Of a stretch of 46,380 nt of DNA, positions 12,332 through 39,519 are shown piece by piece; the first letter of the stretch is position 1; each line of letters opens with the position of its first letter. This stretch comes from an uncultured Candidatus Saccharibacteria bacterium (GTDB lineage: Bacteria; Patescibacteriota; Minisyncoccia; Phycocordibacterales; Zambryskibacteraceae). A model generated the notes under the pieces. It was not told the DNA's origin. It was given only the letters and a program-made list of their open reading frames with translations, and searched no databases. Made by a program: the position numbers and the translations under genes. Location of the stretch: NCBI GenBank assembly GCA_964446535.1, contig CAYUOR010000004.1, positions 1 to 46,380 on the forward strand, in the 5' to 3' direction.

Positions 12332-12332
12332 C

Positions 12333-12524
12333 CTAAAAAAGATAGAGAACCTAGAGAAGAAAATTACCAAAAAGAAAAAGAATGACAAGTCCCTCGAGGG
12401 TGTAAAAAGGAAAATTGGGAAGATTGTAGTAGGATTGGAGAGAAAAGCCGTAAAAGGTAAACTGTCCGACCAAGATGCTCAAGACATTACTAACTTGCTT
12501 GAGGCCCTCGAAAGTACGTTATAA
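12333..12524 (+). pseudogene. start-less C-terminal gene remnant 1
   Basis: Open 63-codon frame LKKIENLEKKITKKKKNDKSLEGVKRKIGKIVVGLERKAVKGKLSDQDAQDITNLLEALESTL*, no start codon; collinear with remnant 2. Confidence 0.75.
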
Positions 12525-12533
12525 TTTATAGAC

Positions 12534-12626
12534 ATGAAAAAAATAGTGATAATCGTGGGTTGTATTCTATTATTAGCGCTCCTGTTATATTGGTATCTAC
12601 TTAACAATACTGCACCACAGTTCTAA
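12534..12626 (+). CDS. 30-aa hydrophobic micropeptide (not in ORF track)
   Basis: MKKIVIIVGCILLLALLLYWYLLNNTAPQF*; ATG 8 nt after TATAAT 12520-12525. Confidence 0.55.
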   Translation: MKKIVIIVGCILLLALLLYWYLLNNTAPQF

Positions 12627-12686
12627 ACGGACTTCACCCTCCACCCTGGATTATTTGCGATCTAGTCTTGATTTAGTATGGAACCG

Positions 12687-12706
12687 TTCGCGCGAATGGG
12701 AGAATA
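12687..12706. repeat. third, partial copy of the palindromic repeat
   Basis: TTCGCGCGAATGGGAGAATA, 19/20 identical to 9460-9479. Confidence 0.8.
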
Positions 12707-12910
12707 AAGAAAAATCTCTTAAAAAAGCTTGATAACTTAGAAAAAAAGATAGAGAAGAAAAAGGCTAAAGGTAAATCATTAGAAGCCATAAAAAAGAGAA
12801 TTGAAAATATAATTAAGAATATAATGAAGAAAGAGGGACGAGGAGTTATAAACGAAGCTGATGCGCAGGAAATCACTACATTGCTAGAACAAATAGAAAG
12901 TGCGCTATAA
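12704..12910 (+). pseudogene. start-less C-terminal gene remnant 2
   Basis: IKKNLLKKLDNLEKKIEKKKAKGKSLEAIKKRIENIIKNIMKKEGRGVINEADAQEITTLLEQIESAL*; 32 of 63 residues identical to remnant 1 by manual count. Confidence 0.75.
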
Positions 12911-12919
12911 TTATAGAAT

Positions 12920-35810: not shown

Positions 35811-36059
35811 CTAAATCGCCCCCTCTTTCCTTAAAATACGCCTTTTAGCGGCCCCTCCGCCTCTAAAGCCACCCGTATCGCCATTCGAGCGAATAACTCT
35901 GTGGCACGGCACTTTTGGGTCGTAATTCTGGTTTAAAATATTCCCTACTGCTCTGAAAGCTCTGGGACTCCCGGCACGTCTTGCCACCTCTTTGTAAGTT
36001 AGGGTCTTACCCTTCGGAATCTTTGCCACCACAGAGTAAACTTTTTCTTTAAACGTCAT
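35811..36059 (-). CDS. MGMT-family protein (single domain)
   Basis: IPKGKTLTY, RAVG, PCHRV, LRKEG; 82 aa. Confidence 0.92.
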   Translation of the reverse strand: MTFKEKVYSVVAKIPKGKTLTYKEVARRAGSPRAFRAVGNILNQNYDPKVPCHRVIRSNGDTGGFRGGGAAKRRILRKEGAI

Positions 36060-36083
36060 TCACATATATTACACAATTCTTGT

Positions 36084-36120
36084 AAAAGAAAAGACCCCCG
36101 AGCAGTGCTTGAGGGGTCTT
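36084..36120 (-). terminator. intrinsic terminator on the minus strand
   Basis: AAGACCCC(TC)AAGC-ACT-GCTCGGGGGTCTT hairpin followed by TTCTTTT. Confidence 0.8.
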
Positions 36121-36610
36121 GAACGAGCGAGAAACTAGCTAAGCGATCAGGGAGTGGGTTATTCCACAAAAATTTTGTTCGACTGGTTTTAAGGCCTGCC
36201 GATCTAGTTTTTGGGGAGGTTCCCCAACACCCTGATGCTTTGCACCCGTTGGCTACTGTTTTCAGTACCCAAAGATATCCCTTTTACCGTTGACACTTGA
36301 ATATATGTCTTCGGATCCCAGGATGGGACATCAACTCATCTAGCCTTCTGGTGGCCTTGACCTATCGCGACGTGTCCTCTAGTCGCGACCCAGGGGCATT
36401 TGCCAGTATGGGAACCTTCTTGGATTTGGAAGTGTACCCCACAAAGACAATTTTTTGATGAGCCAATGATACGTAGGACTGCTCGTGCTTGGAGTCTCTT
36501 TCGAAACCCGTTGAAGGAGATCGCTCTCCAATAGTTCTTGGTATTTAAACCAGAAGCAAGGTATTCCTCCTCGCTCCTAACTATTACAGTCTTTAGTACC
36601 CAGATCTAAC
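36084..36610 (-). ncRNA. candidate large structured non-coding RNA, family unknown
   Basis: Bounded by a promoter (36643-36616) and terminator (36120-36084); no ATG-initiated ORF of 60 aa or more; at least 10 helices including GCGA and GAAA tetraloops and a 12-bp long-range helix with G-U pairs on this strand. Confidence 0.65.
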
Positions 36611-36615
36611 AGAAG

Positions 36616-36643
36616 AGTTTATCAGGATGATTTTTTATGTCAA
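36616..36643 (-). promoter_or_regulatory. sigma70 promoter TTGACA-16-TGnTAAACT
   Basis: TTGACA 36643-36638, TAAACT 36621-36616. Confidence 0.75.
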
Positions 36644-36723
36644 TTGACTTTTATCGTTTTTGTGGACTATTTTGTGTATAAAATGTTGATAAAGTAATCT
36701 TTTTTCGTTATTCTTTTCCGAAC

Positions 36724-36795
36724 GGCCCTATCGTCTATCGGCTAGGACGGAGCCTTCTCAAGGCTCAAAGCGGGGTTCGATTCCCCGTAGGGTCA
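36724..36795 (+). tRNA. tRNA-Glu (anticodon CUC), CCA not encoded
   Basis: Acceptor GGCCCTA/TAGGGTC, anticodon arm GAGCC-TTCTCAA-GGCTC, T loop GGTTCGATTCC. Confidence 0.97.
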
Positions 36796-36820
36796 TGGCA
36801 ACAAGAATTTTATAAAAGAA

Positions 36821-36842
36821 AAGGCGAACCGTAGTTCGCCTT
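36821..36842. terminator. intrinsic terminator between tRNA-Glu and the convergent gene
   Basis: 9-bp stem AAGGCGAAC / GTTCGCCTT with a CGTA loop; A-run upstream gives a U-tract on the minus strand. Confidence 0.8.
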
Positions 36843-36860
36843 CTATTAGTGTTATTGAGA

Positions 36861-37384: not shown

Positions 37385-37705
37385 GTGAAGCGACGACGAG
37401 TACAAGTAACTTGTCTCTGCTCGGCGTACGAGTTTCCCCACCGTCTTGGAGGGGGGTACTGTACGGGCGACGAGTGGGCCCGCAGTTACTTTGAGTTAGT
37501 TGGAGACTGCTGCCGGTACTGTATTGCCAATCGCGGTTTTGGCGAATGTGATGTTGCTTGCGGCGCCGAGTCTATCTCGGTCTGCGAAGGGGTTCGAGAC
37601 CACGCTCTCTATCAGTCGGTCATGCGCCTGCCCGTGACGCTGGAAAAAGAAATGCAGCGCAAGCTCTTTATTTATCAAGAAAACCAAGAATTAGACCGGG
37701 CGTGA
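37385..37705 (+). CDS. Cys-rich hypothetical protein
   Basis: AGGGAG SD then GTG; 9 Cys including CLC, CCRYC and CDVAC, plus FPHR. Confidence 0.7.
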   Translation: MKRRRVQVTCLCSAYEFPHRLGGGYCTGDEWARSYFELVGDCCRYCIANRGFGECDVACGAESISVCEGVRDHALYQSVMRLPVTLEKEMQRKLFIYQENQELDRA

Positions 37706-38269: not shown

Positions 38270-38298
38270 GCTTGTTACCATCTGATATAATCAAGATA

Positions 38299-39519
38299 AT
38301 GGAACTTTTTTCATATCTTTGGCAATACTTAGTCGAGTCCTCTGGTCTCTTTATCGCCTACGGCGCTGCTGCCGTTTTTATTTTTCTTGTACTGCGTCAG
38401 TTCCACTCAAGAAAAATAACAATAGCCTTGGTCGTGATCTTTATCGGTATTTCTATCGCTTTTTACATACCTAATGGCGTGCCCAAAGCATTTGAGTACC
38501 CCTTCAACCTTCGTACTGTCGGCCCTGCCGCCGGACCCGTTCTTCCCCTGTCAAACGTTATTAAATTCTTTAAGCAATTTGACGAGTTTGAAAGGGTTGG
38601 AAATATCGCCCGTGATCCTAATGATACAAGACCAGAAATTAAGCGAGATGAAAATGGCATAGTTGAAATCGAAATAACAGCCAAGGAAGTTATAAGCGAG
38701 ATGGCTGACGGTACAACTTTCAATTACTGGACCTTCGGCGGCACAGTTCCCGGTCCATTTCTCCGTGTTAAAGAGGGTGATACCGTGCGCCTCACGCTAC
38801 ATAATGACCCGACCAGCCTGCATCACCACTCTATAGATTTACACGCGGTAACAGGTCCCGGCGGAGGTGCCGCCGCAACGATTGTTGCTCCGGGCGAGAA
38901 AAAGACCATAACCTTTAAAGCCCTAAGCCCGGGCGTATTTATTTACCACTGCGCTTATCCGAATGTTGCCAACCACATGGCTCACGGCATGTACGGCCTG
39001 ATTCTTGTCGAGCCAAAAAACCCCTTACCGCCAGTTGATAAAGAGTTTTATGTCGTTCAGGGCGAATTTTACAGTTCTGGCGCTCTTGGACGAAAGGGTC
39101 TTCAGCTTTTCGATCCGCAGGCGATGCTTGATGGAAAACCTCAGTACGTTGTTTTAAACGGTAAAGTCGGTGCCCTTGCCGAAAACATGACCGCAGAAGT
39201 CGGCGACACGGTGCGTCTCTATGTCGGCAACGGAGGGGTAAATTTAATTTCTAGCTTCCACGTTATTGGAGAAATTTTTGACAGAGTTTACCGAGAGGGT
39301 GACCTTATCACACCACCAGCCCAAGGTCTTCAGAGCACCCTAATTCCCGCCGGCGCCGCTGCCGTTGTAGATTTTAAAGTAGATTATCCCGGTAAATATA
39401 TTCTGGTTGACCATGCCCTCTCCCGCTTGGATCGCGGAGCTTGGGGCATCTTGCATGTAGAAGGAGAAGCTGATAAAACTATTTTTGATGGCATTTTAGA
39501 AACCGGCAGTGGCCACTAA
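38299..39519 (+). CDS. nirK: copper-containing nitrite reductase with N-terminal TM anchor
   Basis: HSIDLHAVTGPGGG, YHCA...VANHMAHGMYGLILVEP, SSFHVIGEIFD, VDHAL; ATG 38299 is 7 nt after TGnTATAAT. Confidence 0.95.
   Translation: MELFSYLWQYLVESSGLFIAYGAAAVFIFLVLRQFHSRKITIALVVIFIGISIAFYIPNGVPKAFEYPFNLRTVGPAAGPVLPLSNVIKFFKQFDEFERVGNIARDPNDTRPEIKRDENGIVEIEITAKEVISEMADGTTFNYWTFGGTVPGPFLRVKEGDTVRLTLHNDPTSLHHHSIDLHAVTGPGGGAAATIVAPGEKKTITFKALSPGVFIYHCAYPNVANHMAHGMYGLILVEPKNPLPPVDKEFYVVQGEFYSSGALGRKGLQLFDPQAMLDGKPQYVVLNGKVGALAENMTAEVGDTVRLYVGNGGVNLISSFHVIGEIFDRVYREGDLITPPAQGLQSTLIPAGAAAVVDFKVDYPGKYILVDHALSRLDRGAWGILHVEGEADKTIFDGILETGSGH

Follow-up and report, generated by a model that had tools for sequence, protein, structure and literature searches.

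A probable stand-alone structured RNA gene of a family not in Rfam 15, beside tRNA-Glu in a Patescibacteria genome

The window analysed here, the whole 46,380-nucleotide stretch of contig CAYUOR010000004.1 (assembly GCA_964446535.1) from an uncultured Candidatus Saccharibacteria bacterium, contains on its minus strand a predicted RNA gene of 529 nt situated between an MGMT/ogt-like gene and tRNA-Glu(CUC). As proposed in an initial annotation made from the letters alone, the RNA gene occupies the largest gap of the window: positions 36060-36860 form the longest part without an open reading frame (ORF) of at least 60 aa, extending over 801 nt compared with 341 nt for the runner-up. The gap is flanked by the 82-aa MGMT/ogt-like gene on one side and by a 111-aa ORF on the other, and the RNA gene is, again as first described, divergent from the tRNA gene. 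The comparative analysis presented below makes it probable that this locus holds a functional, structured non-coding RNA (ncRNA) gene that stands alone, belongs to no family of Rfam 15 and has a product acting in trans.

Homologues of the RNA were recovered by synteny walking from homologues of ogt and of the adjacent class II ribonucleotide reductase (RNR), whose relatives are 82-92% identical and are named Minisyncoccia or Patescibacteria, which bears out the Patescibacteria assignment implied by the initial annotation. Besides the window copy, full-length copies are present at loci L002 (from Hainich groundwater; identical in sequence to L010 and L019), L024 (identical to L025 and L027) and L028 (identical to L029; Rifle-type groundwater). 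Two additional copies are partial: that of L011 ends at a contig edge, and that of L001, from a Microflora Danica sample, retains only the 3' 170 nt plus the terminator and, of the domains, only the 3' one. The window copy of the RNA is 86%, 75% and 70% identical to those of L028, L002 and L024, respectively, versus 34%, 39% and 45% identity at the four-fold degenerate sites of the adjacent RNR gene, which are essentially saturated. Strong purifying selection thus acts on the sequence of the RNA and, as the structural comparison below shows, on its pairing.

The predicted RNA gene forms its own transcription unit, extending from a strong sigma-70-type promoter to an intrinsic terminator of its own. 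The near-consensus promoter of the initial annotation is recovered by a consensus scan, which matches 10 of 12 consensus positions plus the TG of an extended -10, and its TTGACA, TG and TAnnnT elements are retained in all four full-length copies, with variation in the 16-nt spacer. Similarly, the terminator originally placed at 36120-36084 is seen as a stem at 36118-36093 followed by a U tract at 36092-36084; it is missed by a pattern scan because its loop is longer than 8 nt. All six copies end in such a hairpin (-14 to -22 kcal/mol) and a U tract, and the stem sequences differ between them. Upstream, a perfect palindrome, GTCAATTGAC, overlaps the -35 element and may be a regulator site (operator). 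A second conserved block, AGTCCACAAAAAC, sits 8 nt upstream of the palindrome, persists in L024 despite a different upstream neighbour, and would be an UP element or an operator.

A protein-coding gene was considered as the content of the gap and rejected. The longest ORF inside the RNA is 53 aa, in line with the initial report of no ATG-initiated ORF of 60 aa or more. No frame is open in every copy; in the other copies the longest open stretch falls in a frame other than that of the window, and most indels between copies have lengths not divisible by three. The window contains a long frame free of stops (89 codons without an ATG, counted as 87 codons in the initial annotation and considered there as a possible protein), which is interrupted in the other copies and has no protein relatives: a concatenated six-frame translation used as the protein query gave nothing at E<=10 among 5.8 billion sequences.

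The minus-strand RNA has a predicted minimum free energy of -186.9 kcal/mol, with z = -5.2 relative to dinucleotide shuffles; the plus strand of the same region has z = -4.0. A model of 24 helices and 142 pairs, constructed in window coordinates, was laid on a MAFFT alignment of the six sequences. The pairs of the model form in 89.0% of the alignment cells; sliding the 3' partners by 1-3 columns lowers this share to 36-47% and the number of pairs changed on both sides from 22 to 3-7. The observed pairing or covariation values were matched by none of 500 shuffles. In a separate alignment of the four full-length copies, RNAalifold gives -103.2 kcal/mol; conservation-preserving column shuffles average -51.9 +/- 5.2 (z = -9.9), and the reverse strand reaches -80.1. 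The helices with the strongest support are the hairpin at 36270-36251 (four pairs changed on both sides), the long-range helix described below (three) and the hairpin at 36202-36179 (three).

In this model, the RNA folds into about 24 helices in three domains, and the coordinates of these and the other features of the locus are collected in Table 1. The helices that had been identified by hand in the initial annotation are all found where it had placed them, and all of them except its pseudoknot are retained in the homologues, many with compensatory changes; covariation, the lack of which would have spoken against a structured RNA, is well above the controls. The retained helices include AGGAGCGAGG/CCUUGCUUCU, AAUAGUU/AACUAUU, the GCGA and GAAA hairpins, GUCGCGAC/GUCGCGAU and UCCCA/UGGGA, as well as UACUG/CAGUA (four pairs changed on both sides), UUGGGGA/UCCCCAA, AUCAGGG/CCCUGAU and the 12-bp helix CAUUGGCUCAUC/GAUGAGUUGAUG. 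In the 5' domain, two stacked helices close a multi-branch region, in which AAUAGUU/AACUAUU holds the GGAGCGAGG/CCUUGCUUC and UGGU/ACCA hairpins, and which also contains the GCGA hairpin (36529-36516) and the GAAA hairpin (36509-36492). The 12-bp long-range helix encloses the central domain (36456-36341), including the invariant 21-mer, and since it crosses other helices it is a pseudoknot helix.

Table 1. Positions of the RNA gene, its predicted parts and its neighbours in the window
Feature	Position	Strand	Basis or observation
tRNA-Glu(CUC), divergent upstream neighbour of RNA	36724..36795	+	covariance-model scan, ARAGORN
Conserved upstream block AGTCCACAAAAAC	36656..36668	-	invariant in 3/4 copies; L028 has AATCCACAAAAAC
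Perfect 10-bp palindrome GTCAATTGAC overlapping -35, candidate operator	36639..36648	.	invariant in 4/4 copies
Predicted promoter TTGACA-16-TGaTAAACT, transcription start expected near 36610	36616..36643	-	consensus scan
Predicted RNA gene, ~520 nt	36084..36612	-	fold z-score, homologues, covariation, RNAalifold z, constraint test
5' domain: GUAC/GUAU + GACUGU/GCAGUC closing AAUAGUU/AACUAUU	36469..36599	-	helices 2-9 of model
Hairpin loop GAAUA, one side of loop-loop contact	36562..36566	-	90% paired, 2 pairs changed on both sides
Long-range 12-bp helix, 5' strand CAUUGGCUCAUC	36457..36468	-	helix 10, 3 pairs changed on both sides
Central domain: UUGUC/GGCAA, GUGGG..CCCAU hairpin (conserved AAUCC loop), GUCGCGAC/GUCGCGAU, small variable hairpin	36353..36450	-	helices 11-15
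Invariant 21-mer GGCAAAUGCCCCUGGGUCGCG, central domain	36384..36404	-	identical in 4/4 full-length copies
AGGCUA(G), candidate 5' partner of 3' CUAG box	36341..36346	-	helix 16, 87.5% paired, one A-U to U-A, plus G-U to G-C changes
Long-range 12-bp helix, 3' strand GAUGAGUUGAUG	36329..36340	-	helix 10
Three hairpins: UCCCA/UGGGA, CC-GACAU/GUGUC-GG, GGGUACUG/CAGUAGCC	36251..36328	-	helices 17-20; last with 4 pairs changed on both sides
Hairpin loop UAUUC, other side of loop-loop contact	36299..36303	-	pairs with GAAUA
Invariant 12-mer GCCAACGGGUGC	36242..36253	-	identical in 6/6 copies
3' domain: AUCAGGG/CCCUGAU around three hairpins	36146..36236	-	helices 21-24
3' CUAG box	36132..36138	-	AGCUAG invariant in 6/6 copies
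Intrinsic terminator: stem GACCCC../..GGGGUC + U tract UUUUCUUUU	36084..36118	-	-16.1 kcal/mol
Extended -10 TGTGTAATAT of downstream ogt-like gene, outside RNA	36066..36075	-	conservation, four loci
82-aa MGMT/ogt-like gene, downstream neighbour of RNA	35811..36059	-	PF01035, E = 1.9e-29; synteny

In addition to the long-range helix, the three domains would be tied together by a loop-loop contact and by pairing of the 3' CUAG box. The loop-loop contact (36566-36562/36303-36299) joins the 5' domain to the 3' half and is an addition to the helices listed initially. For the 3' CUAG box there are two candidate partners. The pseudoknot AAACUAG/CUAGUUU of the initial annotation has a conserved CUAG core, but the rest of the pairing is not conserved and its 5' strand is missing in L024; this pseudoknot is thus only partly supported, and AAACUAG is the less conserved of the two partners. 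The other, GGCUAG at 36345-36340, occurs in each of the four full-length copies. The CUAG/AGCU boxes are self-complementary and could, judging from their sequence, pair between molecules. The two GNRA hairpins of the 5' domain lie at the positions first assigned to them but are dispensable or relocated in one homologue, L024, which lacks both and has a GGAGA-GCAA-UCUCC hairpin inserted elsewhere. In L002 and L028, GCAA caps a different hairpin. Across the copies, GNRA-capped hairpins were thus lost at some places and gained at others, and movable GNRA hairpins are typical of RNAs with a compact tertiary fold.

Comparison of the whole window with Rfam 15 at the gathering score returned nothing for the RNA, and searches at E<=10 with the RNA in four copies and with its isolated core returned nothing beyond chance-level matches to mir-491, snoRNAs and a 40-nt fragment of fungal signal recognition particle (SRP) RNA. 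The initial view that the RNA belongs to no known family is upheld by this check of four copies. The covariance models for ROOL, GOLLD, OLE, raiA, HEARO and T-large were likewise unmatched by the four copies. What is new is the RNA family; the general kind, an orphan large structured RNA, is already familiar.

The window holds a single copy of the RNA, and a signature search gave one match per genome. Of 185,579 species genomes, two contain the 22-base signature, both already known carriers; the signature is too strict, as L028 differs from it by one base. A two-block pattern run against metagenome contigs gave one true match, on a known contig, and nine chance matches. No match was found by blastn in phage and plasmid collections or by five sequence patterns in viral contigs. 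At L003 (RNR 85% identical), ogt and tRNA-Glu are about 100 nt apart with matching flanks and without the RNA, and the RNA is likewise missing from L007 and L004 (79-80% identical) and from L012. The RNA gene is thus accessory and single-copy, a cassette that spans roughly 600 bp (about 36680-36084) and is carried by some members of one narrow Minisyncoccia/Paceibacteria clade but not by others; it does not represent a widespread class. The relationships among the copies also differ from those of their flanks. L024 (2460-2975) has the closest RNR (92% aa) yet the most remodelled RNA, with 70% identity and 90 gap columns, and the copy of L011 (5359-5598) looks like a mosaic of two RNA types. 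The conflict of the RNA tree with the flanks at these two loci suggests recombination among RNA alleles.

The RNA in every copy lies directly 5' of ogt on the same strand, or, in L001, 5' of a DUF2127-ogt pair. In L024, a DUF817 gene replaces the tRNA gene as the upstream neighbour, so that the link of the RNA to ogt is constant and its link to the tRNA is not. Which genes follow beyond tRNA-Glu varies from relative to relative, a pattern resembling an integration hot spot. In the window, a Cys-rich ORF of 106 aa (37385-37705, plus strand), located some 600 bp past the tRNA, matches phrog_5016 (E = 3e-16), a phage protein family of unknown function, and is the sole phage-type gene nearby. At L001 (7780-8035), tRNA-Glu(CUC) is inverted relative to the window, and its last ~14 nt (TCTCCGTAGGGTCA) are repeated about 165 nt downstream, like an att-type scar.

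The RNA would act in trans as a compactly folded particle, by analogy with the orphan "ornate" RNAs ROOL, GOLLD, OLE and raiA, and neither as an mRNA leader nor as a base-pairing small RNA. Its functional core would consist of the two invariant single-stranded blocks, GGCAAAUGCCCCUGGGUCGCG and GCCAACGGGUGC. Among roles in trans, a self-assembling or scaffold particle, possibly oligomeric via the self-complementary CUAG/AGCU boxes, is the leading candidate, at somewhat less than an even chance. A protein-binding or sequestering ribonucleoprotein (RNP) is a considerably weaker candidate, a ribozyme a slightly weaker one again, and other roles would account for the remainder.

Several points weigh against a functional trans-acting RNA with the proposed fold. 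The helix model was built from the window sequence, which inflates the fraction of paired cells relative to the slid controls. There are in all four distinct full-length and two partial sequences, from hosts whose RNR proteins are 82-92% identical; with few and related copies, independent covariation events are few, and statistics of the R-scape type would have little power. Two elements of the fold are ambiguous. The candidate partner of the CUAG box may be either AAACUAG or GGCUAG, and the tentative 5'-terminal helix UCUGG/CCAGA shows one compensatory change in L002, overlaps another pairing in L024 and competes with CUGG/CCAG. In addition, equally close relatives without the gene (L003 and L012) and the truncated copy of L001 indicate that the RNA is dispensable. 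Finally, the neighbourhood gives no hint of a substrate or of a protein that might be a partner, and the proposed mechanism is accordingly drawn by analogy.

Of the alternative explanations, the one that survives best is still quite unlikely: a free-standing, exon-less ribozyme derived from a group I intron, either trans-acting or a domesticated relic. In the proposed mapping, the 12-bp long-range helix corresponds to P3, the A-run that follows to J3/4, UUGUC/GGCAA to P4, GGCUAG/CUAGYY to P7 and the terminator hairpin to P9. Helices 10 and 16 cross, the GGCUAG 5' strand abuts the 3' strand of the long-range helix as P7 does P3, and both helices carry compensatory change. An A-rich linker precedes the UUG... 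helix, and the GNRA hairpins sit at the periphery and change place between copies, as they do in large ribozymes. The stretches CCAGAAGGCUAGAUGAG in the junction and AAGCUAGCC in the 3' part, which we presume to be comparable to the group I R and S elements, loosely resemble the RF00028 consensus UCAaAGACUA..AAcGgCaGac and gAAGAUAUAGUC, but this lead failed the model-based test. The Rfam group I model is insensitive to introns with insertions, as the T4 td and nrdB introns are missed at the gathering score, so that a negative Rfam result says little against a group I intron that is interrupted. In the phage T4 segment 135000-150000 (L030, 2900-10200), td is found in E-value mode only, with 40.3 bits versus a threshold of 50.

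In that same mode, however, the td intron, with its two large insertions, serves as a positive control with E = 1.6e-8, and RF00028 finds nothing at E<=10 either on the whole RNA in four copies or on the isolated putative P3-P8 core. Exons are also lacking: the -10 element ends at 36616, 4 nt before the conserved RNA start at about 36612, the 3' end is the terminator, and the flanks are not halves of a tRNA or a gene. At alignment columns 299/526, the pair that would correspond to the guanosine-binding one, two copies have G-C, the window has G-U and L028 has G-A. The spacing is likewise at odds with the mapping, with about 180 nt from the P8-like hairpin to the P7 3' strand and 6-10 nt between "P4" and "P6". 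There is an equally good resemblance to J18/2 of RNase P (UAGAUGAAUGA), and short resemblances of this kind are of low specificity; group I ancestry is for this reason kept as a weak lead.

A very long cis-acting leader of the attenuator or riboswitch type, controlling the ogt-like gene through the terminator, is very unlikely. The constant position of the RNA 5' of ogt (or DUF2127-ogt in L001) on the same strand, with the terminator 24-45 nt before the start codon, would suit such a leader, but ogt is present without it in L003 and L007. In four of the five loci with ogt directly after the RNA (the window, L002, L024 and L011), the extended -10 TGTGTAATAT lies between the terminator and the ogt ATG, without a Shine-Dalgarno sequence; the fifth, L028, has a different sequence there, and in L001 the DUF2127 gene, not ogt, directly follows the RNA. 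In the window, this element lies 6 nt before the ATG (36057-36059). An extended -10 without a Shine-Dalgarno sequence suggests that the ogt transcript is probably separate and leaderless. Moreover, known leaders come nowhere near a length of 520 nt with three domains and pseudoknots, none of the riboswitch and T-box models matches the four copies, and no conserved alternative pairing with the terminator stem is seen, the stem sequence differing between copies.

Even less probable is that the sequence lacks a function and is a remnant left at a recombination hot spot beside the tRNA, whether of a gene in decay, of an intron no longer active or of a mobile element that left a scar. The presence/absence polymorphism of the RNA among close relatives, the truncated RNA, inverted tRNA and duplicated tRNA 3' end of L001, and the variable genes beyond the tRNA, one of them matching phrog_5016, are what a remnant might leave. 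A remnant does not account for an RNA identity far exceeding that of neutral sites, for compensatory changes in many helices or for the conserved promoter and terminator, and the RNA is single-copy, without notable terminal repeats and without a viral, phage or plasmid match. A miniature inverted-repeat transposable element or other mobile element was separately rejected, as there is no second copy, no convincing terminal repeat and no target duplication. The least probable of all is a very divergent housekeeping RNA (RNase P RNA, tmRNA, SRP RNA or 6S RNA), for which the size (within the range of RNase P RNA or tmRNA), resemblances to short RNase P motifs, none of which survived the model-based test, and a partial match of a UGUAAU-type sequence of L002 to the fungal SRP model (15.7 bits, E = 0.16) are outweighed by the lack of a covariance-model match to housekeeping RNAs, an ARAGORN report of tRNA-Glu alone and no tmRNA, the position of the GGAGGAAUACC stretch in a covarying local hairpin (helix 5) rather than in a long-range helix of the P4 type, and the absence of the gene from the syntenic site in close relatives, which, together with the signature in 2 of 185,579 species genomes, is a distribution unlike that of a housekeeping RNA.

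Two other regions of the window were noted. A 415-aa protein encoded at 38272-39519 on the plus strand reaches 329.6 bits against TIGR02376, more than the curated cut-off of this copper-containing nitrite reductase model, and would be a respiratory-type enzyme within a Patescibacteria genome. The second largest ORF-poor stretch, at 12332-12919, is a tandem duplicate of a unit of about 190 bp, each unit ending in a short frame, ...DAQ(D/E)IT(N/T)LLE(A/Q)(L/I)ES(T/A)L, followed by a short hydrophobic ORF.

Few bacterial ncRNAs, roughly a dozen classes, exceed about 400 nt and have complex conserved folds; such RNAs have repeatedly proved to be ribozymes, large RNPs or, recently, RNA-only nanocages. 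We know of no such large structured RNA described for the Candidate Phyla Radiation, the reduced genomes of which can afford little DNA that is not essential. That a 600-bp cassette is under selection yet patchy among close relatives suggests a function useful under certain conditions only, perhaps one related to life as an episymbiont or to defence and conflict involving mobile elements. A bolder proposal, by analogy and rather unlikely, would make it the first large RNA specific to Patescibacteria that is catalytic or self-assembling: an exon-less ribozyme with a group-I-like double-pseudoknot core, or an RNA-only multimer of the ROOL/GOLLD type, carried on a dispensable recombining cassette in ultra-small episymbiotic bacteria. 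Being narrowly distributed and dispensable, the RNA is of limited importance; as a large and complex RNA in a reduced genome, it is a good experimental target, small enough for in vitro probing, cryo-EM and activity assays.

The RNA can be compared with four kinds of large structured RNA. Similar to bacterial RNase P RNA, it is of comparable size, multi-domain and joined by long-range pseudoknots, and it shares a few short similar motifs; unlike RNase P RNA, it matches no model, has its P4-like sequence in a local hairpin and is encoded by a dispensable and rare gene. As in the group I core (RF00028), two long-range helices cross and lie with a 5' strand directly against the 3' strand of the partner helix; the UUG helix follows an A-rich linker, and loose R/S-like stretches and peripheral GNRA hairpins are present. 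The main differences from a group I intron are that the RNA has its own promoter and terminator, no exons, no omega-G and large extra domains. OLE and raiA are, like this RNA, large, highly conserved, stand-alone structured bacterial RNAs. They have no sequence or structure similarity to it and are widespread in Bacillota and Actinomycetota with partner genes, whereas the RNA described here belongs to a narrow clade with no evident partner gene.

The closest resemblance in general character is to ROOL and GOLLD, with which the initial annotation had already drawn a comparison; the likeness in tRNA proximity and size stands, but as an analogy only, there being no covariance-model similarity. 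ROOL and GOLLD have no known function or protein partner, are patchy in distribution and often adjoin tRNA genes (PMC12286853). Similar to these RNAs, the RNA described here falls in a size class of 500-800 nt, is predicted to have many helices and pseudoknots and to form an independent transcription unit, and it too adjoins a tRNA gene, is patchily distributed and is an orphan. Unlike ROOL and GOLLD, which occur in phages, prophages and some bacteria, often near tRNA islands, it lies in a Patescibacteria chromosome beside a single tRNA gene. It has no evident phage context: phage and viral collections gave no match, and the one phage-type ORF nearby is that matching phrog_5016, some 600 bp past the tRNA. 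ROOL/GOLLD and the present model share a prominence of loop-loop and GNRA-type contacts. Some of the "tertiary" pairs of ROOL and GOLLD proved to be intermolecular, and the self-complementary boxes of this RNA could in principle do likewise.

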